Shown one piece after another: positions 27,708-63,390 of a stretch of 64,000 nt of DNA; the stretch's first letter is position 1; every line of letters starts with the position of its first letter. The stretch lies in the NCBI GenBank assembly GCA_965287045.1, contig CBDIYR020000001.1, forward strand, positions 8,866,001-8,930,000. Reading direction: 5' to 3'. Below the pieces are notes generated by a model. It was not told the origin of the DNA, made no database searches, and saw nothing but the letters and a program-made list of their open reading frames with translations. The stretch comes from Carcharhinus amblyrhynchos. Lineage: Eukaryota. The translations under genes were made by a program, and so were the position numbers.

Positions 27708-27837
27708 CACTATACTAAACAACAATACTAAAACACACCAATGTTGATCAGATATACAGGCAGGAAGGTAAATAACCAGGTTGGCAGGTAGATAAAGCCA
27801 TGCATATAAACGTATGTTTATCTAAACATACACTTAC

Positions 27838-27887
27838 CTAAAACAGTTAATTTTGTGCCAGCTCCGAAATAGTAAATGCTGCCAGAG
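27838..27887 (-). CDS. TRBJ: TRBJ segment SGSIYYFGAGTKLTVL
   Basis: FGxG; donor gtaagt; 12-RSS CACGAAG-12-TACAAAACA at 27888-27915. Confidence 0.96.
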
Positions 27888-28529
27888 CACGAAGGTTCAT
27901 GCCTGTTACAAAACATCTAACCTTTCTGTGCTCTGTCCCCCGAGAGGATTATACATAACAATGGAAACAGAGGAACGTAGGACCAAAGGAACATGAGGGC
28001 TTAAAAACATAATACTGGAACGTGGCCTGATAGGAATACTATGAAGCCATATAGCTCATTGAGGTTGTTCTAATATTAAATTAGATCATGGCTTAACTAG
28101 GAATCAGTAAATCAGACATTTGAAATTTTCAATTGAGAATCTTCTTTCCTCAGTTCCATGCCCTCTCCTAAATCCTTCCAATTCTAACAACTTTCTGGAG
28201 GAGACATTTCAAGTATTCCACTAGACTTTATGTGAACAAAATTCTTTCTGACATTGCTCCTGACCAAATAATTTTACTGTTCTGCCCTCATTGACCAAAT
28301 CATTTTGTTTGCATCTACGTTGTTACTCGTTCTGTTTGGTTGAGAGATTCTGTCAGATATTGACTCATTTTCCACAGTGAAACGAGTTCAATATCAGCCA
28401 GTCTGCCATAGTAAACCGTGAAGTTGAAATTAATTAACCAAATTCTGATTTTTTTTCACTCCCTCCACCACCCGCATGAATTCGTAAATTGAACCAACTT
28501 TCTCTAGTATTAGGAATGTGTTCACTTAC

Positions 28530-28579
28530 CTAAAACAACCAGTTTTGTCCCACTTCCGAAATAAGCTTCACTAGCAGAA
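28530..28579 (-). CDS. TRBJ: TRBJ segment SASEAYFGSGTKLVVL
   Basis: FGxG; donor gtaagt; 12-RSS CACAGAG-12-AGCAAAATC at 28580-28607. Confidence 0.96.
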
Positions 28580-29162
28580 CACAGAGGTACAGGGCTGTAG
28601 CAAAATCCCCTCCAAGTCTGGGTTGTGACTTCAGTTTTATTGGAGCTTTTGCTATGTTAATAACCATTAAGAAACGTAGGAACATAGGGATAGGAGGAGG
28701 CCATTTGAGTCTGTCACATCATTAATGTAATTTAATCCCATCATCCATTTTTGGTTCAGCCACATTAGGCACCATTGCTTACCTCCACTTATCTACAGGG
28801 AGTTTGAAATTTTCAAACCCTCAATAGCTTTTGGGACGTAATTTCCTGACTCCCACCACTTGTTGAATTAATGGGAGTTTTCTGACATCAAACTTGAACG
28901 GCCTTTTCTAATTCAAAATGTTCTTGGACTGCCCTTGGCAACAGTGAATCTTTTCCCTCAATCTACTCTACCAATTCGTTTAGTCATTTTAAAAGCCTCG
29001 CTTACATAAACATTTCATGTTCTGCATTCATGAGAATGATAACCTCGCCCATGTATTCAGTGCTGAGCTTTTTATATCCAAGTGCTGAATATTGGCCCAC
29101 GCGATTATTTAGGTGCATCTGGACATATGCATTAATCAATAGGAAGAACGCAGTCACCTTAC

Positions 29163-29210
29163 CTAAAACTGTCAACTTCGTCCCGTCTCCGAAGTAAACT
29201 GTGTTCCCTG
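29163..29210 (-). CDS. TRBJ: TRBJ segment GNTVYFGDGTKLTVL
   Basis: FGxG; donor gtaagg; 12-RSS CACAATG-12-TCATGAACA at 29211-29238. Confidence 0.96.
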
Positions 29211-29402
29211 CACAATGTTCAATTCTAAGTCATGAACAGGTCCCTGAACTGCCCCTTCCCTACTGCGAGAGTTTACTCTGTTTAGAGATAAAGATTCACG
29301 AGGCAGGTGGACATGATTCATGTTGCATGGTTTGCAAAGTTAAACATCTTATTGATTACCGCCTAGAAGGTAAACAAGAAATAAGAGCGACATTTGACTC
29401 AC

Positions 29403-29450
29403 CCAGAACGGTTAATTTGGTTCCTTGCCCAAAATACTGCACATCAGTCG
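29403..29450 (-). CDS. TRBJ: TRBJ segment TDVQYFGQGTKLTVL
   Basis: FGxG; donor gtgagt; 12-RSS CACGGTG-12-CTCAAAAAG at 29451-29478. Confidence 0.96.
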
Positions 29451-29929
29451 CACGGTGACACCCCATCCTCTCAAAAAGGCTCAATTACTTTCCATTCTGC
29501 CCGTATCCAATCTGAATGATTCAGTTGAACTACATGAATCCCATTCTAGCCTAGATGAGTCCATGTTAATATATGAAAGCTATACTGCCCTATCTATTTC
29601 AGTTTAATCTGTGGATTCTACCTTGCCCCCCTGCAATCTGATCTCTATGGGTCAAATTTTAATCTATTAATTCTACAGCATCCTTTAGATTTGTAATTAG
29701 TCACAGGTCGTGTCTGTATTCGGAGTATGGCTGCTTCGCCATTTCTGTTTGATCCAATCGCCACAGCAGTCTCCAAGTATATTGACGGTGCATAGATCGA
29801 ATTATTGTTGCTGGAGGATGTAACAGATGTTGTCTCTTTCTAAAGAAGTGGGAACACTTGCGGATGGTCTCTCGGAAGGTTCAATGCACAACGCCAAGCA
29901 GTTAGAGAGAAAGAAGTCAAATGTCTTAC

Positions 29930-29977
29930 CTAATACTGTCAATTTGGTACCACTCCCGAAATAGACCGTTGTCCCAG
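29930..29977 (-). CDS. TRBJ: TRBJ segment GTTVYFGSGTKLTVL (D-proximal)
   Basis: FGxG; donor gtaaga; 12-RSS CACATCA-12-ACATCAACG at 29978-30005. Confidence 0.95.
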
Positions 29978-30385
29978 CACATCAGCAAGTCGATTTACAT
30001 CAACGTGGCCTGTTAGGCAATAGTGCAGTGCTTATCAATGCACAAGGAGGCATTTTGAAGGCAGTGAAATATATTTTAACAAGTGATCAGGAGCTGATTT
30101 CGCCAAGACATCACATCAAATAGCAGTGATGTGTGTGATCAGGTCATTTTTATGTTGGTTGAGCGATTAATATTGGCCAGGACACTGAAGAAGTCTGAGG
30201 ATGTAGAGTGCCTTGTGTGTTTCCACAAATAACAGAAAAAAATTCATTTTACAGAAACATGCATTGGACGGACAATTGTGTAAAGCCCTTTCCGACGCTC
30301 CTATCATTGTCACTATGAGATGTCGACCGCTTTCACTCCGCTGTCACTGATCTTCTGCTGATCTGCCAATAGGCGTGTACATCGA

Positions 30386-30424: not shown

Positions 30425-30437
30425 TCCCCCCTGTCCC
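30425..30437 (-). CDS. TRBD: TRBD segment GGGACAGGGGGGA
   Basis: Matches the pan-vertebrate D-beta1 core GGGACAGGGGG; open in all three frames (GTGG/GQGG/DRG); flanked by 12- and 23-RSS. Confidence 0.98.
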
Positions 30438-43445: not shown

Positions 43446-43484
43446 GGTTTTTGTTGAGCTCTTTTATCGTTGTAAGTCACTGTG
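43446..43484 (-). promoter_or_regulatory. 23-RSS of proximal V
   Basis: CACAGTG-23-ACAAAAACC, perfect. Confidence 0.97.
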
Positions 43485-44399
43485 TTCACTCCAGGCGCAA
43501 TAATACACGGCCGACTGATTCGCCCAAAGGCTGGAGGACTCCAGGTTAAAGTGGGTGTTGTCGGGTCTACTCGCTTTGAAACCGTCCACCTCACCGGACG
43601 GACTGACTCTTTCAGCCGTGCTGGAGTAGAAAAGGTTTTGAGGTTCACGGTCAGGGTGCCATCGATACCAGTAGAAATAGCTGCTAATTGTTGCTTTATC
43701 GTAATGGCATTCGATAGTGACCTTAGTGCCCGCGGAACTGGATATAGTGGAGGGAGTCTGTTGGATCAGCACGGCCGCCGTACCTGTAAAACGGACTGTG
43801 GAAAGACAAGAGAGTTAACTTTAATATTCCCTGAATGATACAAGAGATGAGCATGAAAGTTAGATAGGGACGAAGGAAAGGGAATGTATGAGTTAGAGAG
43901 AGACAGAGTGGTGCGCAATGTAACAGAAAAAGACAGTTAACAATGAGAAACACAAGAAATATAAAATGACGAGGGGGAGCAAAACGGAAGGTAATGAGCG
44001 GGACGGAGACAGGGAGAGACATAAAAAAAAGAAAACCAAGACTAATCATTGGGATAATAGAGAGAGAGAGATAATGAGAGGGAGGGACACAAGCAGAGGC
44101 ATAGATACAAACAGACATAGGGAGTGTCAGTATAGAGAAAGAAAACAACGAGAGACCGACATAAACAGCGGAAAAAGGAGACAAGCACAGGGAGATTGAC
44201 ATACTGGCATCGTAACAGGTGTACAGAATTTGCATCTTCATAGGGTGTGAATGAACTCCAAGGCAATGGGAAGGAGAAGCTCAACTCCAAAGCAACTCAC
44301 ATTCGAAATAATAACAGCAAGGATCACTGAATCCTTACCATTCTATCCCACCTTACCAGATAACACCAGCAACAGAGCCCAGAGTTGAGACAGAGACAT
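43485..44399 (-). CDS. TRBV: TRBV (CAWS family), intact; leader 44357-44399, V exon 43485-43783
   Basis: Leader MSLSQLWALLLVLS|G; V exon TAAVLIQQTP...IEC...WYRWHPDREP...SAVYYCAWSE; canonical splice sites. Confidence 0.96.
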
Positions 44400-44492
44400 C
44401 TCCGGAAGTTGAAAGACCTGTGTGTTAACAAGGCTCACAACATTCTGAGCAGCGAATGGAATTTGCTGCCCCCATGTCCTTAACGTAAAGTA

Positions 44493-44560
44493 GTCGGATG
44501 GGAGGGGCAAATCTTTCTTTGTTTTCTCATTGGTTCGCAGAATGGGCCTTGCCATTTCCT
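44493..44560 (-). promoter_or_regulatory. Conserved V promoter module (ETS - CCAAT - GC box)
   Basis: GGAAATG...CCAATGA...GCCCCTCCCATCCGAC, repeated upstream of the leaders at 47641-47705, 49825-49891 and (degenerate) 52662-52731. Confidence 0.65.
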
Positions 44561-45109
44561 AAGTAAGAGTAGAAACTGCTAGAAATATTCAGCGGTTCCT
44601 GCACCATCTGAGCTGAAACGCTAACTTGAATTCTCTCCATGGATGTTGCCGGATCTGGTGAGCATTCCAGCCTTTTATTTCGGTTTTATCTCAGATTTCC
44701 AGCATCCTGAGTATTTTGCCTTTTCATTAATCGCTATTTCCGGGTCGGGACTAATCAGAGAACAGAAACACAGAACCATCAGCAAGAGTTCGAGATGGTG
44801 GTGGGGGGGGCGGGGGGGGGAGGGTGGAATCTGTTTAAATCAGTCAGTTGTACAACCGAGAATGAGCTGCCTGAAAGTGCGATCCAAGCAGATACAATGA
44901 TAATTAAAAAGAAAATGAATTGGGTAAAATATTTAGGGGAAATCTAAATGCAAGGATGTGAGCTTAGGATGGGGTAATTTGATAGGGGACATTCAACCAG
45001 TCTTCAACAATACTGGATAATTGCTTATAAATCCTATAGGGAATTCGGAAGCAATCTCTTTACCCAAACTGAGTGGGGGCGGGGGAGGGGTGGGGCAACA
45101 TAGAGCTAA

Positions 45110-45392
45110 AGTAATGTTTATTTATTAGTCATAGATAGGCTTACATTAACACTTCAGTGAAGTTACTGTGAAATTCCCCGAGTCGCCACAGTCTGACGCT
45201 TGTTCGGGTCAATGCATCTAACCAGCACGTCTTTCAGAATGTGGGAGGAAACCGGAACACCCGGAGGAAACCCACGCAGACACGGGGACAACGTGCAAAC
45301 TTCACACAGACAGTAAGCAAAGCCGGGTATCGAACCTGTGTCCCTGGCCAAGTGAGTCAGCAGTGCTAGCTACTGTGCCACCGTGTCACCCC
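45110..45392 (-). mobile_element. V-SINE (different tail subfamily)
   Basis: tRNA head and V core; the 3' part (ttactgtgaaattccccgagtcgcc...tttattag) differs from the HE1 tail. Confidence 0.8.
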
Positions 45393-46527
45393 ATGGCTTG
45401 TTCCATGGGCGGGGTTTCAGGCGAATAGCACTGATTGAGTCTTGGAACGCTGAATAAAAGTATGAGAAGAAAACGACCAGAAAGATATGCTGATCAGGTG
45501 ATTTGAGGAAATGTTGGAGGAGGATGATGTGGGGCTAACTGGGGGCCACTTTCAAACCACCAGACCAGGATCCATGCGTTGAATACACTTAGGTGTGGTT
45601 GGATTCCATGGTTCGAGGAAACATGTCAAAGTACTCCCTTGTTGGAAGCAGAGGCAGTTTCGCTTCTCTCATGCACCAAGAAACTGCTGGATAAGTGATT
45701 TAACGGTCTTCACCATGTTCTGAAACGGCTGTAGGGGCAGGTGCGCCACTGGGGAAGGTACCTGGAGCGATGTCTCGCATTTGCACTGTTTGAATCACGT
45801 GTGATATATTAATGGATATATTGATTTTTCCTTTCTGTGCAACTGTTTCCATCGGGAGATAAGAAAGTCGTGTACAAACCTCTAAAGTCCTTTGATAAGC
45901 AACTATGAAACATTAAGAACTGATATCGATGAGCCGGTAGCGGCACAGTAACCTCCTCTACTCGTTCACGGAATAGCTTGCTAAAAGTAACGACCAATTT
46001 AATGAGAAGAACGCCAGAACATTCGTGCATTATGCTAATAATGCAATGTCACTACCTGAAAAAGAAGAGAGCAAGAAGAGGTGGTGAAGGCCGGCTGGCA
46101 TTATCGCTCAACTATTGACCCAAAAGCTCAACTCATGTTCTGGGGACCCAGGTTTGAATCCCACCACGGCAATGGCGCAATTCAAAGTTAATCAAAAATA
46201 GCTGGAATTAAGATCCTACTGATGACTGTGAAATCATCTGCCCTCCTTAACTGATCTGGCCTACATGTGACTTCAGATCCACAGCAACGTGTTTGACTCT
46301 CAACTGCTCTCGGGCAACTAGAATAAATAAAGGTCGATTTGCTGTGCCCGTGTCCCACGAATGAACAAAATAAGATTAATTGAAATAAGTCATCATTCAC
46401 CATCTATTGTAAACTACAGGCGCACAGATAGATAGAGGCTGACAGACGCGAGGGTTCAATTGGCTATCTATATTTTGATCTGGTTGAGGGTTTTTGTTGA
46501 ATTCTTTAATCGCTGTAAGTCACTGTG

Positions 46528-47554
46528 TTCACTCCAGGCGCAATAATACACAGCCGACTGATTTGCCCAAAGGCTCGAGGACTCCAGGTAAAAATGGGTG
46601 TCGTTGGGTCTCCTCGCTCTGAAACCGTCCAGCTCACCGGGCGGATTGACTGTACTAGCCACGGAATAGAAAAGGTTCTGAGGTTCACGGTCAGGACGCC
46701 ATCGATACCAGTAGAAATAGTTGGCAGCTGTTGATTCCGCGTAAATGCATTTGATAGTGACCTTAGTGCCCGAGGAACTGGAGATAGAAGAGGGAGTCTG
46801 TTGGATCAGCACGGCCGCCGTATCTGTAAAACCGACTGTGAAAAGACAGGAGAGTTAACTCTGATATCCCCCGAATGACACAAGAAATTAGCGTGAAATA
46901 TAGANNNNNNNNNNNNNNNNNNNNNNNNNNNNNNNNNNNNNNNNNNNNNNNNNNNNNNNNNNNNNNNNNNNNNNNNNNNNNNNNNNNNNNNNNNNNNNNN
47001 NNNNNNNNNNNNNNNNNNNNNNNNNNNNNNNNNNNNNNNNNNNNNNNNNNNNNNNNNNNNNNNNNNNNNNNNNNNNNNNNNNNNNCACTGTCACCTTAAA
47101 CAAAAAAGATATTTAAATGTGAGAAACATCAGAAATATAGACCGAGGGGGAGAGCAAGAGACAGAGGGGGTTAATGAGCGGGGCACACACAGGGAGTGAA
47201 TGAACAATTCGGAAAAGCAAGAACCATCGCTGGGACAAATGAATGGAGAGGGTGAAATAATGAGAGCCAGGAAACAAGCAGAAGCACAGAGAGACAAACA
47301 GACAAAGGGAGAGTCAGCACAAAGGGAGAAAATATGAAAATCGAATGAGAACTCGAAATAAAAGTGATGGGAAAGGAAGAATGGCGGAAAAAAACAATGG
47401 CATCCTAACAGGTGCACAGAATCTGTAGTTTCCATGGGTGTGAGTACCTCCCAGGGAATTGGGACGGGATCTTCGAATCCAAATCAATTCATCGCTGATA
47501 TTCCACCTTACCAGGTAACAGCAGCAACAGAGCCCAGATCTGAAACGGAGACAT
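46528..47554 (-). CDS. TRBV: TRBV (CAWS family), intact; leader 47512-47554, V exon 46528-46823
   Basis: Leader MSPFQIWALLLLLP; V ...IKC...WYRWRPDREP...YYCAWSE; perfect 23-RSS at 46489-46527; intron spans an N gap. Confidence 0.94.
46905..47085. other. Assembly gap
   Basis: Run of N. Confidence 1.
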
Positions 47555-48782
47555 CTCCGGAGGCTGAAAGATCAGTGTGCTCGCAACACTCACAAAGTTC
47601 TGAACACTGAGTGGGATTTGCTGTCGCCATGTCCGGAATGGTCGGATGGGAGGGGCAAACCTTTTTTATTTTCTCATTGGCTCCCAGAATGGGCGTCATT
47701 TCCGAGTAAAAATAGAAAATGCGAGAAATGTCCAGCAGCTTTGAGCTCAGAAGGTAACTTCGATTCTCTGCACAGACTTTTTCCAAGATTTTCCAGTTTT
47801 CTCAGTTTTATTTCCGATTTTCAGCATCCGAGCATCTTGTTATCTCATTTATCTCCATTTCCGGGATGTGGCTTTTCCGGAACACTGGCATTACCCTGGT
47901 ACTCAGATTCAGGAGCATTCGTCAATGTACCAGATGGTTAGGATAATTTGCTTAAATCAGTCAGTTATACAACTGAGAATGAACTACCTGAAGATGTACC
48001 CCAATGGAGACCATACCTGAAGAATTGTCTCGCTTTTGCATTTTTTGAAACCTTGGCGGCAGATTTAGGGATTTAAAGGTTTCGCCTTTCTGTGGGACTG
48101 TTCCTCTCAGATTAGTGATGCTAGGGGAAGATCGGAAAGATGGACGAAATCCTGAAATGCTTTGATGAGTTAATGTGAAAATCAGGTCCTAACATCGTTA
48201 GATAACGGACTGGTCACCAGAGGACACCGATTTAAGGGAATTGACAAAAGATTCAGAGTTGCCGGTGCCTACAATCCTCCTGATTGCACTATCACCACCT
48301 GGTAAACACTCAGAATGGCGGTGCCGCAGATTCAAAACGGAGGAACGTGTTCTTTGGAAGAGCGGGTAAAAGTACAATGGAACCATTAACCTCGTTTATC
48401 CCTTCTTGGAATAAATACTTTAAAATAGCGATGATTTTAACGAGAAAAATCATCAGAACTTTCATGTATCATGTTGTAAAATATCAATAATAGAATGCCA
48501 TAATTTGAAATGAGAGAGAGCAAAAGGTTTATTGATATCAATGGAATAAATCATGATTTACCAACCCCTGTGAATTACAGGGGCGAAGATTGATGATATA
48601 CAGATAAAGACAGATAGATACATACATACATACATACATGCATTCGGACATGGATGCATACGTGTAGACATCAGACGGTGAGACACAGACGCTGACGGAC
48701 AACATGGTTTACTTGGCTGCAATTATATTTTTTCTCCTCTTCGGGTTTTTGTTGAGGGTTTACATCTATGTGAGTAACCGTG

Positions 48783-49700
48783 TACACTCCAGGCGCAATA
48801 ATACACAGCCGAGTGATTCGTCCATAGGCCCGAGGACTTCAGGTAAAAGTGGGTGTTGTTGGGCCTACTCGCGGTGAAACCATCCACCTCACCGGCGGGA
48901 AACACGTTGCTAGCGCCGTAGGAATAGAAGAGGTTCCGAGGCTCACGGTCAGGATGCCATTCGTACCAGTAGAAATAGTTGCCAGCTGCTGCTTCTGCGT
49001 AAAAGCATTCGATGGTGATTGCAGTGCCTTTGGAACTGGATATGGAAGAGGGAGTCTGTTGAATCAGCACGGCCGCCTTAACTGTAAAACCGACTGTGGA
49101 AAGACAAGGGAGTTAAATTTGATGGCACAAGAAATTAAAGTGAAAGCTAGATGGGGGTGAATCAATAAAGATAAGGTGTGCGTGAGAAAGAGAGAGAGAG
49201 ACGCACAGTTGCAGAGAAAGAGAGCAAAAATCGAGAAGCAGAAGTAACGCAGACAGAGAGGAAGAGTGAGAGAGAGACAGAAAGGCATAATGAGCGGGGC
49301 ACAGACAGGGAGAGATGGAACGACAAGAAGGGAAGCAAAAACAGTGGTTGTTATATGTAGAAGCAAAGTGAGATAATGACAGAGAGGGAAACAAGCAGAG
49401 GCACATGAGACAAACGGACAAAGGGAGGGTCGGCATAGTGAGAGAAAAGAACTAGGGACCGAGTGAGACAGAGAGAAAGGAACACAGGGACTGAGAGAGT
49501 GACGGAAAATAGCGGCATCCTAACAGTTCCAGATCATCTACAATGGGTGTGAATGAATTCCCGGAGATCGGGAGAAGAACCTCAACTCTAAAGCATCTCA
49601 ATTCGGACGCTATAACAGCGAGGATCGATGACACCTCGCCCTTCAACTCCTCCTTACCAGCCAACAGCAGCAACAGAGCCCAGAGCTGAGGCGGAGACAT
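48783..49700 (-). CDS. TRBV: TRBV (CAWS family), intact; leader 49658-49700, V exon 48783-49081
   Basis: Leader MSPPQLWALLLLLA; V ...IEC...WYEWHPDREP...YYCAWSV; 23-RSS CACGGTT-23-ACAAAAACC at 48744-48782. Confidence 0.95.
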
Positions 49701-50429
49701 CTTCCGAGGCTGAAAGAGCAGTGCGTTCACAACGTGAAACCACTGAGCCGTGCTAATGCCGAACAGCTCAGAAGTTCCGGAAACTGACTGGAATTTGCTG
49801 TTCCCATGTTATGAATGTTAACTAGTCGGATGGGAGGGGCAAACATTTTTCAGCTTTTCATTGGCTCCCAGAATACGATTCGTCATTTCCTGAATAAGAA
49901 GAGAAAATACTAGCAACATTCACCAGTTCAGGTATCAGCAGAGTTGAAACGGTAAATATGATTCTCTCCACAGATGTTGCCAGATCTGCTGAACATTTCA
50001 AACTTTTCGGTTTTTATTAAAATTCTAGCATACTTTGCATTTTTAGTAGTCTTCAATTGTGGTGCGGGGCCAATGAGGAAGAACAGTGTTATCAAATAAC
50101 TCAGAGCATTGGCAAAAATACCAGATGTCTGGGAGAATCTGTCAGTTATACAAAAGAAAATGAACTGCCTGAAATTCAGATCGAAACGGATTCAATAATA
50201 TATTTCTGAATTGAATTGGATAAAATATTGACGGGGAAACTAAATGCAGTGATGTGGGAGCGAACAGAGAATGGGACAAATTGAATAGGGGACAAGTTAC
50301 CCAGCCATCATCAATATGAGAGAATTATTTATAAATCCTGTATGGAATTCGAAAACAATGTCTTTACCAAAAGCATGGGGGCAATTTAAAACTGACTTTC
50401 ACATGTGAGGATACTGTGTCTTGAAGAAA

Positions 50430-50698
50430 CGTGTTTGGACTTTGTTCTTGTGCAATGTCTCGTGGAATAGTTATAAGCACTCGGAGCCGTCCTAACAGCC
50501 AGCATTCTGTAGTGTTGCTGCAACAACATAATTGATTCTAATGGCTAGAATGTTGGTTTTAATCTTCACTAATACTGTTGTGCTCTTCTCTCCTGGGATT
50601 TTGCAGGGTGGGGCTTAATTGGGATGATTGACAGGTATGGTCATGTGATGGCGGAATCTGGCCTTACACAGGTATTCAAGCTCAGGTGCTGCTTCAAG

Positions 50699-50747
<49 letters not shown>

Positions 50748-51235
50748 CAGTGTTTTCCCCTTCCCTTGAGTTGGATTTTCTGTGGTCTGAGTGTTGCTGC
50801 TTTGGAGGCTGACAGAGATTAGGTTTACTTCTGTGTTTTACTGCCTTGAGCATATATCCTTCTCTGAAAATTGCTGTTTGGATTTCAACAATTGGTGTTA
50901 AAACCTAAAAATCTAGCATTATGTGACCATACTTCTTTTAATGCTAACTAATTCTGTATGTTAATGGGACATTGCTGTTAAATTGGAACAACAGAGATTT
51001 GGAGGTTTATACTAGGTCACATTTAAGTATTTTAGTCGTAAAAGTTATGCTAATTATTTTCGTTATATCGTAAATGTGTCCTTAAATAAACTTTGAGCAA
51101 AGCTTCCAAGTGGGTCACTTGAATCATACCTGAAGTGAAACAACTGATACTCAGTAATCACAAACTCAAATGTAAAACCTAGGGTCTAGGCTATCTTCAC
51201 GAAACACATTGGAGTGTCTGGCCTGAGCTTTAACA
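50430..51235 (+). mobile_element. Probable solo LTR containing (TG)n(GA)n at 50700-50747
   Basis: 3' block related to 11250-11955; ends ...gcctgagctttaaca; 5' boundary approximate. Confidence 0.4.
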
Positions 51236-51600
51236 CACGGGAGGGGTTAAGGCGAATAACATTGATTCCGTAAACGGCATTCACCATATGCCCAAACAGC
51301 TGTAAAGGGTAGGTGACCCATTGACGAAGTATCTGGAATGATGTCTCGCATTTGCATTCTTCGAATCATGAGTAATATATTTATGGATTTAATTATTTCT
51401 TATTTCTGTGGAATTGTTTAACTTACAGGGGCGGAAATGGGTAAGAGATAGACAGACGGACAGGCGGATGGACGGGCGCGCGGCGAGCCGAATGATTGAT
51501 TAACACAGCGAGACACAGAGGCTGACGGACAGCAGAGTTCTGTTGGCTATAATTATATTTTGACTCCTGTTGAGGGATTTGGTCTCTGGGAGTCATTGTG

Positions 51601-52533
51601 TAAACTCCAGGCGCAATAGGACAGAGCCCAGTGATACGCCCACAGGCCAGAGGACTCCAGGTAAAATTGGGTGTTGTTAGGCCTACTCAAGTTGGAACCG
51701 TTCACCTCACCGTGCAGAATGACTCTTCCAACGAAGCGAGAATAGGAAAGGATTTGAGGCTCACGGTCAGGGTGCCATCGAAAGCAGTAGACATAGGTTC
51801 CGGCTGATGGTTCCTTGCAAATGCATTTGATGGTGAATTTACTGCCCGGGGAACTGGATGTAGAAGAGGGAGCCTGTTCGATCAACATGACCGCCATATC
51901 TGTAAAACCGACTGTAGAAAAATAAGGAAGTTAACTTCGATATCTCGTGATGGGCACATAAAATAAGCATGGAAGATAGATATAGATGAATGAAAGAGAG
52001 AGAGCGTGACTGAGTTTGTGTGTTCGTGTGTGAGAGATGCAACATTGCAGAAAATGAGAACTAAAAGTGGGAAATAGACGACATGCAAACGGACAAGATG
52101 AGAGCGAAAGAGATACACACACACACACACACACACAGAGCGGGACACAGACACAGAGTGAGGGAACTACAAAAAGGAAAGCAAGAACAATCGCTGGGAT
52201 AAAATGGAGAGAGTGAGATAATGACAGCGAGGGAAACACTCAGAGACACAGAGACAGGCGGACAAAGGGGAGTCAGTATAGAGTGAGGAAATTGTGAAAG
52301 ACCGAGAGGGACAAAAAAAACACAGGGATTGAAAGAGTTATGGAAAGAACTGTCAACATAACTGTGAATTAACCCCTGGTGAGTGGTGAATTTACCCCTG
52401 CGAAGAGGGGAGTGGAACCTCAACTCCAAAGCAGATCAACTCCGAAACAATAAAAGCGAGGAACACTGACACCTCCCCGTTTAACTCCACCTTACCAGGG
52501 GTCCGCAGTAGCAAATGCAGAGCTCAGAGACAT
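51601..52533 (-). pseudogene. TRBV: TRBV pseudogene (CAWS family); leader 52496-52533, V exon 51601-51899
   Basis: Leader is 38 nt versus 43 nt in paralogs (frameshift); conserved Trp replaced (YVYCFRW); nonamer degraded (ACAGGAGTC); V exon itself open. Confidence 0.9.
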
Positions 52534-53149
52534 TCCTGGAAGCTGAAAGATCCGCGTACTCACAACGTGAAACCACTGAGCCGTTTTATTGTAGAATATT
52601 ACAAAGTTCTCAACACTGATTGGGATTTGCTGTCCCTTTGCCCTGCATGTTAATTTGATAAATGGGAGGGGCAAATCTTTCATTCTTTTTACTCCTTCTT
52701 TTGGCTCCCAGAGCACGAATTGTTATTTCCTGAGTAAAAAAAATTATATGCCAGAAATATTCAGCTGTTTAGGCATCATCTGTTGCCACAAGTTCTAATG
52801 ATTTCCAGCTTTCGGTTTTGAATCATGTTGTCAGCATCCGCAGTAATTTGCTTTTGTATTCGTCGCCATTTCCGGTGTGGGACTTGTCAGGTAGTAAATT
52901 ATCATCTGCGAAATCGTTAGCAAAACTCAAAAGTAACTGATTGGTCGGAGAATCTGTTTAAATCAGTCAGATATGCAAGAGAGAATGGGCCGCCAGGAAG
53001 TGTGATCAAAGCAGATTCAATCATCATTTTAAAAAATAATTAGATAAATTCATGAGGGTGAACTTAACTGCAGGAATACAGGAGTGAACAGAGAGGATCA
53101 TTAGAGTGGATGTGTTAACCAACCTTCATCAATATTAGATAATTACTTA

Positions 53150-53487
53150 GACGGCACGTTGGCACAGTGGTTAGCCTCATGGCGCGAGGAACCCAGGTTC
53201 AACTCTAGTCTTGAGTGACTGTCTATGTGGAATTTGCACGATTTCTTCCGGTTTGATCCGAATGTCTAATTTCCTCTAAAGGTTTGCAGGGATTGGGTTG
53301 ATTGGCCACGCTAAATTGCCTTTAGTGTTCAAAATTGTGTAATTTAGATGGGTTAGTCTTGGTATTCAGGGATGACTGGGATTCGGGGAATAGGCCTGAG
53401 GAAGGTGATCTTCAGAGAGTCAATGGTGACTCGATTTGCTGAAATGCTTCCTTTTGCAATGTAGAAATTCTTTGATTCTATGATTCT
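53150..53487 (+). mobile_element. HE1/V-SINE, degraded
   Basis: ggcacgttggcacagtggttag head; tail gattctatgattct. Confidence 0.7.
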
Positions 53488-53829
53488 TAATTGAAAACTC
53501 TGAAGGGAATTCAGAAGCAACCTCTTTGCCCAAAGTGTGGTGACAATATAGCATTTTTATTTCTCATGTTTTCTTTTTTCTCAAATTACTAGAGAATTAT
53601 TTTCACGACCATGCGCTCAAATGGCTGTCCGGTGACTGTCTAGTGAGGAAGGTATGTAGAGATAGGTCTCACTTTTGCCATGTTTGAATCATGGGTGATA
53701 TATTTATGGGTTTAAAGGTTTATGTTTCTTTGGAATGGCTTCCTTCATGGGTTAAGGAATGATCTAAGAGACTTCTACAAAACCCTGACGTCTTTTGATG
53801 AATACACTTTAAATATCAGGAGCTAATAT

Positions 53830-54137
53830 CATTGAATCCTTGCAGTGCAGAAGGAGATTATTTGGCCGATCGCGTTTACACCAGCCGTACAACAAAGCAG
53901 CTTACCCAGGCCACCCACAGCTCTATCCGCTTATCCTCACGCATTTATCTTGCGCATATTAAGGGACCAATCCAGTTAACCTGCACATGATTAGGTCATG
54001 AGAGGAAACCAGAGCACCCAGAGGAAACGCACGCAGGCACATAGAGAATGTGCAAACTTTATCCAGTCATCAAAGACAGGATTCGAACTCGGGTTCCCAA
54101 CGCTGTGAAGCAGCTGTGCTAACCACTATGCCACGGT
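53830..54137 (-). mobile_element. HE1/V-SINE
   Basis: gaggaaaccagagcacccagaggaaacgcacgcaggcac core. Confidence 0.75.
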
Positions 54138-54509
54138 AGTATAGATGGGGAAAGGAACGATCAATGGTGGACACCAATTTTGGGATATTGGCAAAAGATT
54201 CATAACTGCAGAGTTTTGGAAATCTCCTCTGTGCGAAACATCAGTTTGAAACACTCTGAACGGCGGTACAGCAGATTCTTTGGAAACTTTGAAAAATCAG
54301 TGGGCATTCTGTACACGATCAGGAAACTCTCAGAGGCACTAATAGCCTCATCCACCATTCACGGACTCATTATTAAAAATAGCGGCTAATTAAATGAGAA
54401 GAACATTCATGGATAATGTTCTAATCTTAAAGATAGAATACCATGATCTGAACTAAAAGAGGTCAGGAAGATTAATCAAAATCAATGAAATCACAAATCA
54501 CGGTCCACC

Positions 54510-54742
54510 NNNNNNNNNNNNNNNNNNNNNNNNNNNNNNNNNNNNNNNNNNNNNNNNNNNNNNNNNNNNNNNNNNNNNNNNNNNNNNNNNNNNNNNNNNN
54601 NNNNNNNNNNNNNNNNNNNNNNNNNNNNNNNNNNNNNNNNNNNNNNNNNNNNNNNNNNNNNNNNNNNNNNNNNNNNNNNNNNNNNNNNNNNNNNNNNNNN
54701 NNNNNNNNNNNNNNNNNNNNNNNNNNNNNNNNNNNNNNNNNN
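54510..54742. other. Assembly gap
   Basis: Run of N. Confidence 1.
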
Positions 54743-54782
54743 GTGCTGTTGCTGCGCTCTGCCACCTCTTTGAATCACTGTG

Positions 54783-55075
54783 AAACTCCGGGACGAGTAA
54801 TATATGGCCGATACAACAACTTCCGTCCAGTCCCTGCCGGAGGATTTTAGATAGGTGGGCATAGTTGGGCTTCCTCGTGGTGGAACCATCAACTTCACTG
54901 GAGGGAGAGATGTTATCATAGAAAAGATCCTGCCGCTCACGGTCATGGTGTCATCCGTACCAGCAGAAGAAGTTGCCAGCATCTGCTTCTCTAGGGAGAC
55001 TTTGAATGCTGACCGGAGTGGCCAATGAACTGGAAATGGAAACAGGAGTTTGTCGGAGCAGCAAGGCATCCACAT
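54783..55075 (-). pseudogene. TRBV: TRBV pseudogene (divergent CAWS-related)
   Basis: DVDALLLRQTPVSISSS...IQSL (Cys lost)...WYG*HHDRE...; frameshift; ends SAIYYSSRS then CACAGTG at 54776-54782 with a poor nonamer; no leader found. Confidence 0.88.
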
Positions 55076-56324
55076 CTGTAAATTGGAAAGGGAAGGTGAA
55101 GAGAGAATTATAAAGCCATAAATAGAGTCTGCATTGATAAGAAGATGAAAAATAGGGGTGAAGGGGAAACACAGTGATACAGGTGTTGGGGGCGGGGCGG
55201 GGGGGGCAGCAAATGATGGATGGACAAAGACATAATGAGTGAACGAGAGAGAAAAATCCGGCAGAGGGAAATGTGCATAGAAGCACGCGCACACACGCAC
55301 AAAAACATGCGCACAAACACCCTACCCGTCATCATTAGCAACACATTTCCAAGGTGAGCATACTCATCATTAGAGCGGGGAAGACAATTCTGTTTAGTGT
55401 GTGAATTTACTGAGCAGTGTTCTTGTAGAATATCCATGTTTTGGACACGAAGTTGACTTCACAGTTTACTCGTACATCATCTGGAATATTTGGAAAAGTG
55501 AGATCAGGCTTTCTTCCTTTGTCTGGAGTGATAATTTCCGAGGCAGACCGTTCTGGAGAATCTCCTCTGAACTGTTTCTGAGGCCTTGTCATGCTTCCTA
55601 AACTAAATTGCTTGCGCTGGAGGAAATCTTTCCTAAATGTTGAAATCTGTCATCACGAACCTGGGGTCATGACCAACTGATGATTCTGATATGCACACAC
55701 TAAGCCCGAGGCGTACGCAGCTTAACTGGTTGAAGAGGCTCCTTTTCAAGTCTCTTCTTTTCGAGATACCTTCTTTTAGCCTTAACATATGGCTGTCATT
55801 GTGCGCCAGTTTTCAAGGGAGCGCATGTCTACTGTGGTGGACTACGTGTCTCAAATGGATTGTTTCATTCCGGATAGCGTCAAGCTTCATGCGCGTTATA
55901 CATTCATCCAGGCAAGTGGAGAACATTCCATAATTCTTCTAATTTGTGTCTTGAAGTGGATTGATTGTCTGTATATCACTTCGCTGCATCGGTGTTACAT
56001 AATAGACCTTCGTCGTTCAGTAATTAACGTTATTGGACAGTCATTACGACTGAATCTATCATATGTGACACAATGAAAGCAATGCAAAGGAAGAGTTGGA
56101 ATTTTGAAGGGCATCTGGGACAGATGTATTTGTTCCCTTCTCCCTTCTGATTTCCTACAGCCTTCGGTTACTTCCGTCATTCATTCTTGGTGAAATTGCA
56201 GGTGGAATCGACCGTTGAAGCGGGAAGACATTAGCGGCTGTGGCGGCTTTGATCGTGCAGTCAGTTGTAGATGTTCATCCGATTGCTTTTTTGTATTGAC
56301 ACTATCGCGATCCGCAGCTCTGTG

Positions 56325-57146
56325 CTCACTGCTTGCACAGTAATACATCGCCGAATCCGCAACCTTCACTTTCAAGATCCTCAAGGTACACTTCTTCTCC
56401 TCGGGCCGCGTAATCTTGATCTCGTTCTCGAAGTTTCCTTCGTAAGTAGCTCCAACTCCATTAGTATGATAACCCATTAGGCGGAAAGCCACGCCAGGGT
56501 ACTGCTGATACCAGAGCATCACGGTCTTGCTGCTGTCGTTTTGGTAACAATTTAATTCTGTTGCCTCGCCTTTATTCACGGCCATCTGAATTGGCCATTG
56601 GTATATCAGCTGTGCCAGTGTTTTGCCTGGAGAAATAAAGAGAATATTTACAATGCTTAAATCGTCATGGGTGACAGGAAAATGAATTTAAAAGACATTA
56701 AATGACCGGATAGACGACGAAAAAGTAGATGCTATGTAGGTAGATAGGTAATAAACAGGTAGATAGTAGCCTGATAGATAGGCAGGCACATAATTCATAG
56801 ATAATTCATAGATAGATAGATAGATAGACGAGTACTATAAGACATCTAGATTGCGGACACATGTTGAGGTCAACACAATTTTAGTAGCGATATGAAAATG
56901 TTAACACTTCTCATTTCCTCAGAAAGTTAATTAATCTAGTATGATTCTGCAAGAGATTCCGCCCACGATCATGCTCGCCCTAAAATTTAAGCATACTAAT
57001 AAAAAACGACTGCTTTTTTTATATCAGTCCAATTCGGTTGGCGTTAATAACGGAAGAAAACACAGGTGAGGTTTTAGCGTTATAAACATTGGCGAAATAC
57101 CTAGAAATGAAGAGCAGAGGAAAACAAAGAGAGCAGCTGTCTGCAT
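56325..57146 (-). CDS. TRBV: TRBV (CASS family), intact; leader 57101-57146, V exon 56325-56626
   Basis: Leader MQTAALFVFLCSSFL|G; KTLAQLIYQWP...LNCYQ...WYQQYPG...DSAMYYCASSE; 23-RSS CACAGAG-23-ACAAAAAAG at 56286-56324. Confidence 0.96.
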
Positions 57147-57216
57147 CTTACACACTGGAGGTTGAATCTGCTATTGGATCGTTTGCAGGCAGCAGTCGAT
57201 AAAACTGACTTCAGGA

Positions 57217-57620
57217 CGTGACGACAGAAGAATCTGGGTTTCCTGTTGACTCGTCAATTCCTGTATTAAGGGTTAAAACGGCACCAGTCGCCGTGCGTGC
57301 CCTGGTTGTGCAAATGGTTCATGGGGCTAGGTTCGCTTCGATAGACCCATCGAGGCAGGACCCATGTCTGGATAAAAATATTGCGAAAGGGTTGACAGGC
57401 CGAGTCGCGCACGTCTTGGGGGAGAAATAAGGTGGAGGTACCCGTAAAACCATCAAAAGTTTGATTGCCATCTCTGGTGAAGCCAAAGGTATAAAATGGC
57501 CTCCCCTTAATGGCCAAGGCAGGCTAGTACATTCCTGGAGTATTCACATCTGGGGTTAATGGCTTGCTCGCTAGCAGCTTGGGCGCCCTGTTTCTCAGGA
57601 CCGCAGCTGGGGTTGCCACA
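57217..57620. mobile_element. Probable solo LTR in the V promoter
   Basis: Termini CGTGACGAC...GTTGCCACA (imperfect inverted), flanks CAGGA/CAGAA. Confidence 0.5.
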
Positions 57621-57936
57621 CAGAATGTGATACAGTGACTAAGGCAGAGCAACAATGTAAATTGCATTGGATACAATTTATTGGTTGCTTCATACTATAA
57701 TCCAGCACTCGCCGAAAAGCTGTCGAAGCAGGTTTAAATAACTTCAGAGCCCGCTGTCGATGGAGGAAAAGTAAATACCCAGAATTGCATTCGCTCCATC
57801 AGAGAAATGACAACATTTCTGTGAGCCAACCAACAATACGTTTGGCCGCTTGCACTTATAAGTGGAACAACTTGGAGGAGGACAGATTCTCACTCACTGC
57901 CCAGAGTTTGAGAAATCCTGCAGTCAAAGAACGTTT

Positions 57937-58066
57937 CATAGAATCATAGAATCATAGAGCCCTACAATGCAGAAAGAGGCCCTTCGGCCTATCGAGTCTG
58001 CAACGAACACAATCCCACACCCGCCCCTGCCCTACAAATTATACCCACTAATCCCTCTAACCTACA
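57937..58066 (-). mobile_element. HE1 SINE tail fragment between promoter and leader of the inverted pseudogene
   Basis: (catagaat)n plus cctacaatgcagaaagaggcccttcggcc. Confidence 0.75.
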
Positions 58067-58068
58067 GG

Positions 58069-58765
58069 ATGTCTGTACTTCCGTTCTCGATTCTGTTGCT
58101 GCTGCTACCGACGAAACTGGCCTCTGATGTGTCAGTAATCTTGACTGTCATTGCCCTGCGCGCCCGATTAGGGGTTAATCCACTTTCTATGCTAATTCCA
58201 AGACGTTTTAAATTGTAGATTTCACCTCTCTGTGTTTGCCGCCTCTGTGTCTATTTGTCACTCTGTCTCCCTCTCCCTGTCACTCCGTTCCTCTCTCTGA
58301 CGATTTATCTACTAATTTCCTTCTTTAGGCTTCCTACCTTCCTTCGCCCGACTGTCTCTCAGTGCTCTGTGTGTTTCTCTCTTTATACCACTCGAGGCCT
58401 TCTGTGGCCAATCCCCTCCCCTTCGTTTTACCTGAGGTTCCCGCTATCTCCATCTGATTCTCTCATTCTACCCTTCTCTCTTTTCACCTGGTTTTCTCTG
58501 TTTATCTCTCTATCACGGCCTCGCTGCTCCGCTCTCAGTCTCACACCTCTTCTCACCCCCAGGCCTACCACTGCCTATTTTTATATCCCTTTGAAGTATT
58601 CAAAGTTTATATATCTGCCTTTTCACTCTCTGATTTACAGAAGTGGCGGCCATACTGGTCAATAGATTCCAGCTTTCATATCCAGTTCCCGGGCCACCCC
58701 AATCAGCCTCAAATGCCTTCACATTAAAGAAGATGGTAGCAGCTGGTGTTGATGGTATCTGGCCA
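58069..58765 (+). pseudogene. TRBV: Inverted TRBV pseudogene (CAWS family), 3'-truncated
   Basis: Leader-like MSVLPFSILLLLLP with the donor deleted; exon from 58641 VAAILV/fs/PAFISSSRATPISLKC...*WYL; no FR3 or RSS. Confidence 0.85.
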
Positions 58766-60495
58766 TCTCTTCTTTGAGCATAGCACTTCATTCACCCTTT
58801 TTTTTTGCTTCCAGGTTTTGACGACAATCTGTTCTTATCTCATTGAAGCCCCCTTTACTCCAGTTCATTGTCCTTTTCCATAGTCACCATAAAACTTCTA
58901 TACAGTGATCACGATCCCATATATGTTCCCTCTCTGACACTTGATGGCACATAGAGTGACACCGCAGTTATAACACAGTCGAGGCAATTCGGCCCAAGTG
59001 CCTTGTGCCATCATTTATCCTCCACATTAATCCCCTCTCACCCTACTTTATCTGAGGATATTAACATAGCAAATAATAAAGGCATCTCTGGTTTTGGATA
59101 ATTTCTTATCAAATAATACACTATCCCAGATTCTGTTGGCCCAAATCTTCCTTTGCCCGCAGAGTCGTACCCCAGTGTAATCCACGAGAGACGCTGACGA
59201 TACCCTTGGGAATCCCGAGGAAGTTTGAACTCCCGCTAGGCTAGTACCCTGCATTTGAAATCATCCGATAGACAGGTTTAAAGTTGAGAGTTCAAATTTG
59301 TCCAAGTCTCTTAGCGCAATAGCTTCTCAGGAAAAGTCAGAAGTATTAAAACCACGTTTAACTCCTGTGTAAAGATATGACGAATATTCTCCCCCACCCC
59401 CCAACACTGGACCCCTTTGCCATCCCAAATGACCTAACTCCTTCCCTTCATACCGCCGACTAATAACCAATTAACGCTACGGGCACCTGATTACACTCCA
59501 CCTCCTTACTGACCCCCTTGCTGCCAACCGTGAACAGGCCACCCTACCCCTCCGCCCCACCTCTCTTCCCGATAGAACGTACCCACAAACTAAATGCACA
59601 TAACTATCTCAGGGACATTTGAACCGAGGCCCTTACGGCAGCTAGAGGAAAAAACACGCTGGGTAAGTATAAAGCAACGGAGTGGCAGTATGATTGTGGG
59701 CGCCATACCTCGGAAGTCTGGGGCTGTAGCTATCCAATCATTTGCGTAGATTTTTGATACCGTGATACTATTTTTACTCCAACCATATTGAGTTCAAGCT
59801 ACCAGATCATTGGAGTTTAAAAATATTCATTATAAACGCTCAACAAAATGCAATGATGTATAACCTACCCAAATGCAATCTGACTGCTTGTCCATTGACC
59901 CTAGTGTCTCAACATTTGGAACATAGTTACGGAGCTCTTTCGAAAGCATGATAAGAGGAGTAATGAAGAAATGCAGAGAGAGGCAGGTAAATAAGAGAGT
60001 GGAAGGGACAAGAAGAGAAACGGGCGCGAGAGAAACAAAAGGAAAATTAAGAAAGTAGTATCTGACACACCACCAAATAAATTTAACCCGGATTTAAGAG
60101 TGAATGCCTTCGCAAGCTCTGCATTCCAAGCGAAAAAGCTTTTTGATTATCCGCGACTGACATACATTCTGCATATTGTGCGAGAATGCAACTGAGCACC
60201 CATTTTGTCAATAATTTCATTAGATTTATTCTAATGCGTAGAAATGGAACGAAGATTTGCCCGTGCACTTTAGAGTCTGGTTGGCAGCTGCTGAACATTT
60301 CCCGAATTTAACGTTAGCCTGTCCCAACAGCACGCCACCCCCCCGCCCACCTCCTCCCCACGATCCCCTGCCACACGCCGCGCCCACTCCCCAAGAGATT
60401 TCCCGGACTCTCCAAATGGTTGAAACTACCCATCACTGGAAACCTGAAATAAACCTCCCCTCCATGTCTCCTCGTCAGAAGATGTCGCAGGGAGC

Positions 60496-60503
60496 TGACG
60501 TCA
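60496..60503. promoter_or_regulatory. Perfect CRE palindrome TGACGTCA
   Basis: 660 bp upstream of the inverted V ATG; a near-CRE GGTGACGTCG lies at 60961-60970. Confidence 0.35.
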
Positions 60504-61164
60504 CGAGCAGCTATATCCTTTAATGCTCCTTGAGAAATTGATGCTGTTATTTTCTGGCCAACGACTGGATTACTAAAACATGTCAGGGGATAGTCAGTCA
60601 ACCACATTTGCCTATGGCGGATCATGCAGAAGGCAGGCCGAGTAATGATAGCAGATTTGGTTTTCTTCGATATTAGTAAAACAGACTGGCTTTTCCGGAA
60701 ATCCAGTAGTGTCATGCACATTAATACTGAAAACAGGCTCTTTATTGCAGATTTGATTCTATTTGCTGCCAGGATATGGTATGAAACCCTTGTCCATGAA
60801 TCAATTAGCCTAGCATTCTGTACTAATAGACCAGCAACATTACTACGATTCTACATTAGGATAACAAACAGCACTGTCTGCAGAGAGCTAAAGCAGGGAT
60901 CGGTAGACTAATGGATAAAATTGTTTGGCGGATCCAGACTAAATCCACCACTCGGAAGCTGGTGACGTCGGTTTAAGCTAACTTTAGAATCAGTTGGCGA
61001 AGGTCGAAACGTAAATGCGTCGAGTCGCATTAGCTCCACCCCGGAAATGACATGTTGTCCCAACCCACTATAAAGTGATCGCAAGCATTTATCCGTTGAA
61101 CAACTTAGAGGAGATATCCATTATCCAGAATTTGAGAAATCCTGCAGTTAAATACCCTTTAAAG

Positions 61165-62026
61165 ATGTATAGGTCTGGGCTCTGGGGCTTGTTGCTGCTG
61201 TTACCGGGTAAGGTGGAACTGGCCTCTGAGTTGCCAGTGAGCTTCACTGTTTTTGCGTTGCGTGTCCCAGTTAGGGGTTAACCTCCGTTCTGAGCTGCTT
61301 AACATCGCTTGAAGATGTAGATTCCCTCTGTCCTTCTTTGTTGCCATAGTCTCTGTTTGTCACTGTTTTTCTCTCCCTGCCACTCTGTTTCTCCCTTTAG
61401 GCTTCTTTGCTTATGGATTTCTCTAGTTTGACCCGACCTTCGTCCGCTTGTCTCTCAGTGTATTTCCTCTGTTCCTCCCTTTTTCTTTCCATTCATGATC
61501 TATCGATTGTTCTTGGTTTTCTCTCTGTTCCTGCCCCTCCTTCTCAGTTTGTCTTTGTTTCTCTCATTCTCGCCTGGCACTCTTTGCCTGCTTTTCTGTC
61601 TTTCTCTATCTCTATATCATTGCCTTACTCTCCCACTCTCATTCTTGTCTCAGCTCTCTTTCCCTTTCTGTCCTTGCAACCCCTCAAAGGGTGTCAAGGT
61701 TAATATCTGTCTTTTCTCTCTGTTTTACAGATGTGGCGGCGGTGCTGGTCCAACAGACTCCACCTTACATATCCAGCTCCCCGGGCACTGCAGTCAGTAT
61801 CGAATGTCATTGCATAAAAGCAATGTTTACCTCCTCTTTCAATTGGTATCGATGGCATCCTGATCGTGCTCCTCAGAACCTTTTCTACGCCTATGGCACA
61901 GAGATCACTCCCAAAGGGGAGGTGGACGGATTCACCGCCAGAAAATCGGACAACACTCACTTTTACCTGGAGTCTTCAAGCCTGCGGGCCAATCCCTCAG
62001 CCATGTATTACTGCGCCTGGAGTTTA
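61165..62026 (+). CDS. TRBV: Inverted TRBV (CAWS family), intact; leader 61165-61207, V exon 61731-62026
   Basis: Leader MYRSGLWGLLLLLP|gtaag; DVAAVLVQQTP...IECHC...WYRWHPDRAP...SAMYYCAWSL; 23-RSS CACAGTG-23-GCTAAAAAC at 62027-62065. Confidence 0.95.
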
Positions 62027-63390
62027 CACAGTGGCTCAGAAAGATGCATGAGTTCGGCTAAAAACCCAAGTGGATCCGAAAAAATAATAGGAGTTACAAC
62101 CATCTCTTTATCTATCTATCTATCTATTATCGATGTATCCAAATGTCATAAATTGCCGAACTATCAACATCTTTATTTACCTAACTAATGGCATGCATCA
62201 GGTTTCAGTATTTAGACATGTAATATAATGCTGTTTTTTTGATTTATTTTATTAACATTGAATCACCATCTCTTTTACTTAACATTATAATATACATTTT
62301 TTTAAGCATTCCATTCAGGAATTTCCGACAAGGCAGTGTCTGCATTTTACAAACAATTTTCGAGGTGGGGTAAATTGGTTAGTTCTATGGCTGAAAGAAG
62401 GGACAAGGTATAGAACAAGCAGTTACACAGCTCGCGACTATGCAATTGGGTATTTCCCAAGCTTGCCGGCCCAATACGGGGAGGCAATGGCCAAATGTTA
62501 CTATCGCTAGATTCTTAATCCAAAAACCGCTAATGCTCTAGGGGCCTGGACTCGATTCGCACCACGGCAGATGGTGGAATTTGAATTTAAGTTTAAAAGA
62601 TCAGGAATTAAGAATATATTGACCATGAAACGATTGTCAGAAAAAAAACATCTGCTTTACTAATGCCCTTTAGGGAGGGAAATCTATAATCCTTATCTTG
62701 TATGGCCTACATGTGACTTCCAAGCCATAGCAAAATTGTTGACTCTGAGCTGCCATCAGGCAACTAGGGATGGGCAATAATTGCTGGCCCAGCCAGTGAC
62801 GCACATGTCCCACGAATGAATTAAAAAAAGGCTGTTTACCACGAGGTATTCACGCTATTGCAGTCGTAACGAGAGAAATCAGAAACTGATACAATTCGAG
62901 GGAAGGACATTCCGTCCATAATGCCAGTATTTTCTTTAAGGGATCTGATCATTGCATATTCCCCTGACCTGTTCCAAATATTCCGCTTTGGATATTTCTC
63001 CGACCACATTTTAGCATTTTCTATGGAATTTGCTTCGACTGCCCTTCAGGCATTGCCAATCCACAGGGTATATTTCGTTATGGCGAAAGGTTCACTGATC
63101 TCTCACTGGTTTGCTACTGATCTCCTATGAATCGACTGAACAAGGGATTTGGGAAGGAAATTGGCCTAAAGTAGAACAACGATGAACAAGTTGATGGGAA
63201 AGTGGCCTACTCCTGCTCATACATTCCTATGTTCTCATTCTGGTTATTTTGTCATTCAACATGAAGCAATGGTCTCTGTTTAACTGTCATCCTTTCAAAT
63301 GATATCAAGTCCTTGCGCTGTTTCTCATTATCTACTATCAAAATACGCAACGATTTCCAAAATCTCTTCCAAATTTTCCCTTATTTTCAG

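Follow-up and report, generated by a model that had tools for sequence, protein, structure and literature searches.

TRBV30 and Related V Genes Outside Mammals

The beta chain of the MEL5 T-cell receptor (TCR; 3HG1) is named TRBV30 (PMC5887915). A clade of 3'-inverted TRBV genes is reported to span the amniotes (PMC11754216), and several inverted V genes are described as common outside mammals (PMC12698447). Among sharks, the layout of the TRB locus of the bamboo shark Chiloscyllium punctatum has already been tabulated (PMC10322711), and the table gives 15 V genes inverted behind TRBC_1 (PMC10322711, Suppl. Table 3); tryptophan at residue 44 is not discussed in that table. The analysis presented here concerns a 64,000-nucleotide stretch of the 2.9-Gb genome of the grey reef shark, Carcharhinus amblyrhynchos (contig CBDIYR020000001.1, called C38; C38:8,866,001-8,930,000). 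This whole stretch is called the window, and the survey of V exons was extended to 464 kb around it. The window holds a TCR-beta locus on the minus strand, with V genes from 43.4 kb upward, and four of these encode Trp44 (W44). Residue positions are IMGT numbers, set by counting from W41 and C104, the anchors of that convention.

The four genes are best read as intact members of a shark subfamily within the CAW (TRBV30-like) V-beta lineage that are likely to rearrange and would pair with ordinary alpha chains, Trp44 likely being accommodated by Pro50 of the same chain; a probability of about 0.68 is given to this reading. By sequence comparison they make up an ancient and conserved side branch of a lineage of which mammals retain one gene, TRBV30. 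The W44 subfamily is real and modest, a new variant within a known lineage. No published account of it was found in a search that left older shark cDNA papers uncovered, and W44 sequences may already be in print; proteins orthologous to these genes are already present, unnamed, in public gene sets.

The Trp44 Genes of the Window

The four genes, with their recombination signal sequences (RSS), are:

43446..44399, minus strand: W44 V-beta gene 1; leader 44357-44399, V exon 43485-43783, W44 codon 43659-43661, N97-Q-S 43518-43520, consensus 23-RSS 43446-43484; motifs WYRWHPDREP and LWANQSAVYYCAWS
46489..47554, minus strand: W44 V-beta gene 2; leader 47512-47554, V exon 46528-46823, W44 codon 46699-46701, N97-Q-S 46561-46563, consensus 23-RSS 46489-46527, intron partly N; motifs WYRWRPDREP and LWANQSAVYYCAWS
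48744..49700, minus strand: W44 V-beta gene 3; leader 49658-49700, V exon 48783-49081, W44 codon 48957-48959, N97-H-S 48816-48818, RSS at 48782 with heptamer CACGGTT; motifs WYEWHPDREP and LWTNHSAVYYCAWS
61165..62065, plus strand: W44 V-beta gene 4; leader 61165-61207, V exon 61731-62026, W44 codon 61853-61855, N-P-S (no sequon), 23-RSS 62027-62065 with three nonamer mismatches, an extra Cys in the first complementarity-determining region (CDR1); motifs WYRWHPDRAP and LRANPSAMYYCAWS

Cys23, Trp41, Cys104, an open frame, a leader and splice sites are found in all four. Each has a 14-codon leader, a GTAAGG donor, an in-phase acceptor and an RSS with a 23-bp spacer, which is consensus in two (genes 1 and 2) and imperfect in the other two (genes 3 and 4). 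The linkage to beta D, J and C elements is present. An earlier reading of the window, made from its sequence only, had reported four V exons with these motifs in the second and third framework regions (FR2 and FR3) and with CAWS ends, and they are indeed there, at 43485-43775, 46528-46815 and 48783-49073 on the minus strand and at 61739-62026 on the plus strand. It also held that three of the genes carry a glycosylation sequon, and this is borne out (NQS, NQS and NHS), the NPS of gene 4 being no sequon.

Three further V sequences lie in the same interval, the last serving as an internal control:

51601..51891, minus strand: decayed W44 member with an open frame, Cys at the W41 position and a poor RSS (five mismatches); no leader was found for it
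54849..55067 (ends approximate), minus strand: W44-family pseudogene with TGA at codon 44, the first Cys lost and a frameshift in FR3
56325..56615, minus strand: conventional V-beta with Gln44, Asp98 and a CASSE end

The two decayed copies had escaped the sequence-only reading. The locus holds seven open members of the W44 family, two of them outside the window. Codon 44 is TGG in all seven and TGA in the broken copy, while in the other 41 V exons it is CAA or CAG in 40 and AAA in one. W44 is also kept in five records from three other shark genera. Since it is TGG in every open member and has been retained across these genera, W44 is not a chance change.

The sequence-only reading had further suggested an ancient, expanded lineage related to TRBV30, and proposed a V phylogeny as the check. 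In a careful tree of 49 rows, picked by the author from 135 (a quick tree was also used), all 12 W44 rows, which come from four sharks, fall into a single clade (100/99) within the elasmobranch CAW genes (99/96). These group with reedfish 'TRBV30' (the label of the source) and with sturgeon, gar, amphibian, reptile CAW genes (96/89); the tree has no mammalian TRBV30 row. When the PDB is searched with a profile built from 27 family members, 5xov_J and 3hg1_E come first among single-domain chains (91 bits), while the mouse V-beta domain in 3tf7 reaches 63. The tree position and this ranking support the suggestion. The W44 genes have the CAW germline end and lack Arg75, as is characteristic of the TRBV30 or 3'-inverted lineage. 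They do not have the TRBV30-type CDR1, Gln44 and Asp98 that mark the TRBV30 subgroup in the strict sense.

Trp44 and the Pairing Face

On the C-C' hairpin, residue 44 lies next to residue 50, and both point towards the partner domain. W44 occurs with P50 in 11/11 open W44 rows, while 23 of 29 relatives have Q/L at 44/50. Among the six intact W44 genes the ratio of non-synonymous to synonymous substitution (dN/dS) is 0.14 in FR2, 0.16 in FR3, 2.19 in CDR1 and 0.77 in CDR2, values that derive from non-independent pairs and, for CDR1, from only 11 codons; the framework values range from 0.14 to 0.36. On these codon comparisons FR2 and FR3 are under purifying selection while the CDRs are diversified. 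The predicted model of a W44 V domain has an ordinary V-set fold (pLDDT 88), and its structure matches are mostly TCR beta chains.

It is likely, judging from the sequences on both sides of the interface, that Trp44 is tolerated at its predicted alpha contact and is not the sign of a special partner. The indole of Trp44 would fill the room left by the smaller residue 50, the change thus being absorbed within the beta chain, and the usual Gln-Gln hydrogen bond would be swapped for packing. The alpha side was sampled in 44 ten-kb stretches of the alpha/delta contig C40, where 85 of 91 V exons are open. Residue 44 of these 85 is Gln in 76, Lys in four, His in two, and Arg, Glu and Leu in one each; Trp44 is found in none of them, and no family among them stands out as a dedicated partner of W44. 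The diversified CDRs (2.19 and 0.77) and the lack of a complementary alpha family among the 85 exons do not fit a semi-invariant TCR. Trp44 is, besides, present in V-beta domains of teleosts. The restricted or unusual alpha pairing proposed in the sequence-only reading thus finds no support in the germline data. A complex prediction of a W44 V-beta exon with a shark V-alpha exon, both without the J strand and with alignments unused, scored 0.01 and carries no weight either way. The CDR1-FR2 piece, searched against the PDB, matched antibody chains, and the five alignments listed include no natural W44 structure. Human TRAV24 has Trp at 44, and PDB 9k2r is a TRAV24/TRBV27 structure.

Several points weigh against ordinary pairing with compensation by Pro50, besides the dependence among the dN/dS pairs. 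W44 is kept in 12/12 rows of the clade, three other shark genera included, and may therefore be selected for more than tolerance. The alpha/delta side is not uniform, as 9/85 exons have K, H, R, E or L at 44. In teleosts Trp44 is accompanied by F, I or T at 50 and not by Pro, so that the size-compensation idea is not general. The lineage assignment reaches mammals only via the PDB profile ranking, as the tree lacks a mammalian TRBV30 row. The orthology with bamboo-shark genes rests on position and intron length, since the published table gives no sequences. Finally, engineered antibodies pair VH Q39Y with VL Q38R to steer pairing (PMC5297537).

The last point bears on the most serious alternative, that W44 biases pairing towards alpha/delta V domains with a basic or aromatic-compatible residue 44 and so sets up a semi-orthogonal subset of receptors. 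W44 is invariant in the clade with an FR2 dN/dS of 0.14, as such a bias would have it, and the idea is kept alive because the basic residue-44 exons in the alpha/delta sample (K44 in four, H44 in two and R44 in one of 85) recall the engineered VH Q39Y/VL Q38R pair (PMC5297537). The Fab is comparable in that V-V pairing accommodates an aromatic residue in place of the corresponding interface glutamine, but it is an engineered antibody with a designed basic partner, whereas no dedicated partner family was found in the shark. Moreover, the non-Gln44 exons are scattered, K44 and Q44 occur side by side in one family, and the longer 3' ends of several suggest delta-type genes (the author's reading). 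The CDRs of the W44 genes are diversified, unlike those of an invariant receptor. The sample comprises 44 ten-kb stretches of C40 and not the whole locus; on the exons covered, the pairing bias is to be regarded as unlikely. Somewhat more doubtful still is a bolder form of it, a natural orthogonal interface in at least three shark orders, in which W44/P50 and the new CDR1 would prefer K/R/H44 alpha/delta domains and define a distinct T-cell subset, with the teleost Trp44 as a parallel.

Origin of the Trp44 Form

What sets the W44 branch apart is the 5' half of its V exon. The CDR1 of the W44 genes has an identity of 0.08-0.10 to any CAW group, while for the Gln44 shark CAW genes the value against bony fish and tetrapods is still 0.39. 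In a tree of the 5' half W44 joins CAW (98/94); its stem there measures 0.68, compared with 0.28 in the 3' half. As the 5' half groups with CAW on a long stem, fast change and not a chimera accounts for it. On the stem branch a burst of change in FR1-CDR1-FR2 would have turned Gln44/Leu50 into Trp44/Pro50. In functional terms the new CDR1 probably matters more, as it would widen the germline repertoire.

A chimeric origin, in which the 5' half came from V-alpha/delta or from another V-beta family, is very improbable. Tyr25 is alpha-like (found in 4/7 W44 members here, 63/83 alpha rows and 0/29 CAW relatives), as is Pro50, and the matches of the 5' DNA of the W44 genes are short whatever the group, those to alpha being slightly better; a quick tree also put the 5' half next to the CAC family, though flagged for a long branch. 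However, the careful 5'-half tree keeps W44 with CAW (98/94), and in both FR1 and FR2 the scores against CAW exceed those against alpha. The V-alpha chimera was rejected on that tree and those scores. That the W44 genes are decaying copies with neutral damage, as the two decayed copies among them and the two imperfect RSS might suggest, is just as improbable given their intact leaders and splice sites, framework dN/dS of 0.14-0.36, orthologues in three other shark genera and likely bamboo-shark orthologues, which are listed as transcribed.

Two observations on CDR1 may be added. In several W44 members from three species, an extra Cys replaces Tyr25 (window 61739-62026 and 51601-51891; P0002 and P0089); it is unpaired and stands at the start of CDR1. 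A Gln44 shark gene (L014:8269-8556, plus strand) shares 14/16 residues with human TRBV30 from Cys23 through CDR1 into FR2, a conservation that is unusual for an antigen-facing loop.

The Asn97 Sequon and the 75-98 Pair

The sequence-only reading took the sequon as Asn replacing the conserved Asp of FR3. This is not so: with Cys104 as the reference, the Asn falls on 97, and the place of Asp98 is taken by Gln, His or Pro. Of the three features it flagged as remodelled, only Trp44 stands; the sequon and the loss of Asp98 are, like CAWS, shared with the Gln44 majority and with many V-beta genes of non-mammals. The sequon is found in 33/48 V exons at the locus, including 28/29 of the non-Trp CAW relatives. 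In other records it is present in 26/44 CAW domains (sturgeon, gar, newt, Xenopus, caecilian, lizard, skink and one turtle) and in 27/31 bird-type V-beta records chosen by an FR2 filter. Residues 75/98 are other than R/D in all W44 (11/11), shark CAW (29/29), bony-fish CAW (7/7) and bird (3/3) rows and in 7/9 mammal-type rows, while 44/52 alpha rows have R/D. The mouse 42F3 beta chain, from a solved receptor (PDB 3tf7), has G/Q there, and human TRBV30 lacks the sequon and Arg75 and keeps Asp98. Two of the three flagged features are thus ordinary, since the sequon and the absence of the Arg75/Asp98 pair are widespread. As far as the compared sequences go, CAWS, a sequon at Asn97 and the absence of Asp98 run through the lineage as a whole.

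The loss of Asp98 breaks no salt bridge, because its partner Arg75 is absent too. Residues 75, 97 and 98 lie away from the pairing face, and a glycan on Asn97 would sit at the base of the V domain, away from the alpha interface. Non-mammals are reported to lack the long FG loop that C-beta has in mammals (PMC4558533), and it may be speculated that the glycan stands in for this loop. Outside mammals, V-beta genes commonly carry the Asn97 sequon and lack the Arg75-Asp98 bridge, so that neither trait need be flagged as an oddity.

Locus and Surroundings

The remaining beta elements of the window are:

10302..10412, minus strand: TRBC transmembrane exon
14846..15187, minus strand: TRBC Ig-domain exon
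26040..29990 (cluster ends approximate), minus strand: eight TRBJ segments (FGxG)
30425..30437, minus strand: single TRBD with 3' 23-RSS

Among named proteins, those of Heterodontus, Scyliorhinus and Chiloscyllium come closest (59-74% identity). The 464 kb contain 48 V exons with an RSS, and 27 of these are inverted, 3' of C. The CAW (TRBV30-like) lineage makes up 36 of the 48, seven with Trp44 and 29 with Gln or Lys44, and sits on both sides of D-J-C. The four W44 genes of the window are 5' of D, while one W44 gene, the first inverted V behind C, lies on the 3' side together with 19 CAW relatives. The inverted cluster (C38:8,745,000-8,853,200) has 27 V exons, 20 of them of the CAW lineage, at a place where mammals have one gene and the bamboo shark, according to its table, 15. 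It also includes an atypical open V (L017:8156-8440, plus strand) with WYVQ, a CTAHKD end, a long branch, leader candidates and a good 23-RSS.

No remnant of a second D-J-C was found on C38. The expected flank neighbours of the TRBV30 or 3'-inverted TRBV lineage are an Eph receptor on the 3' side and a MOXD2-type gene on the 5' side; on C38 (11.5 Mb; counts are lower bounds) neither PF01404 nor PF01082 had a match. A second complete TRB-type locus is present at C36:725,000-745,000, with a C exon 56% identical to that of the window, the same D core and five J. It is accompanied by a multi-megabase array of V-beta-like exons in both orientations with CAC, CAA or CAS ends (C36 0.75-4.13 Mb and C59), and none of the V exons sampled there is a CAW gene. 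In the bamboo shark both C genes are given on one scaffold (PMC10322711). The Scyliorhinus torazame gene model P0092 joins a CAW V to J and C, its C domain being 31-36% identical to either C-beta of the grey reef shark, and no closer match to this domain was found in the grey reef shark genome. By its sequence, P0092 is possibly a third, divergent beta-like constant gene.

Comparison With Known Systems

The TRBV30 lineage is a single gene in mammals, yet supplies 36 of the 48 V genes at the shark locus, and one of its branches rebuilt FR1-CDR1-FR2 and then kept the rebuilt form. With this branch it could be tested, in a defined way and at low cost, whether framework residues of the germline influence how alpha and beta chains pair in a jawed vertebrate that branched off early; W44/P50 is also a natural interface variant for TCR engineering. 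Should pairing prove unbiased, W44 becomes a footnote on interface tolerance.

The closest described locus is that of the bamboo shark, where the tabulated V genes before D are on mixed strands, as here, and TRBV10, 11, 15 and 16 match by order and intron size. The TRBV10/TRBV11 pair resembles the last two V genes before C (intron end 132 and 132; 451 and 489), and the plus-strand TRBV15 resembles gene 4 (61165-62026; span 862 and 862, intron end 578 and 566). TRBV11 and TRBV15, which correspond to two of the W44 genes here in order, strand and intron, carry the entry 'F, transcribed' in the table (PMC10322711, Suppl. Table 3). In the tree, gene 4 has the bamboo-shark W44 protein P0002 as its sister (92/79), and gene 4 is likely the orthologue of TRBV15, as far as the tabulated positions and this protein indicate. 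Judged by leader length and position, only two of the tabulated bamboo-shark genes agree with the W44 pattern, whereas seven are open here, and the three tandem minus-strand copies therefore look like a later local expansion. The table also places a second, plus-strand D-J-C directly after TRBV16 on the same scaffold; the corresponding place here has none, and this is the likely reason why gene 4 lies on the plus strand.

A related V-beta lineage with Trp44 is found in four teleost genera (Coilia, Electrophorus, Pangasianodon and Clarias). It shares Trp44 with the shark genes but ends in CAA and has F, I or T at 50. The teleost family is sister to a Gln44 sturgeon gene (97/95). Trp44 has two origins on the best tree, and a single origin is not rejected (approximately unbiased test, p = 0.058).

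Human TRBV30 shares with the W44 genes CAW at 104-106, the absence of Arg75 and the best single-domain PDB match. It is, however, one gene with Gln44, Leu50 and Asp98 and without the sequon, while the shark has 36 lineage genes on both sides of D-J-C, and unlike human TRBV30 the W44 branch has lost the conserved CDR1.

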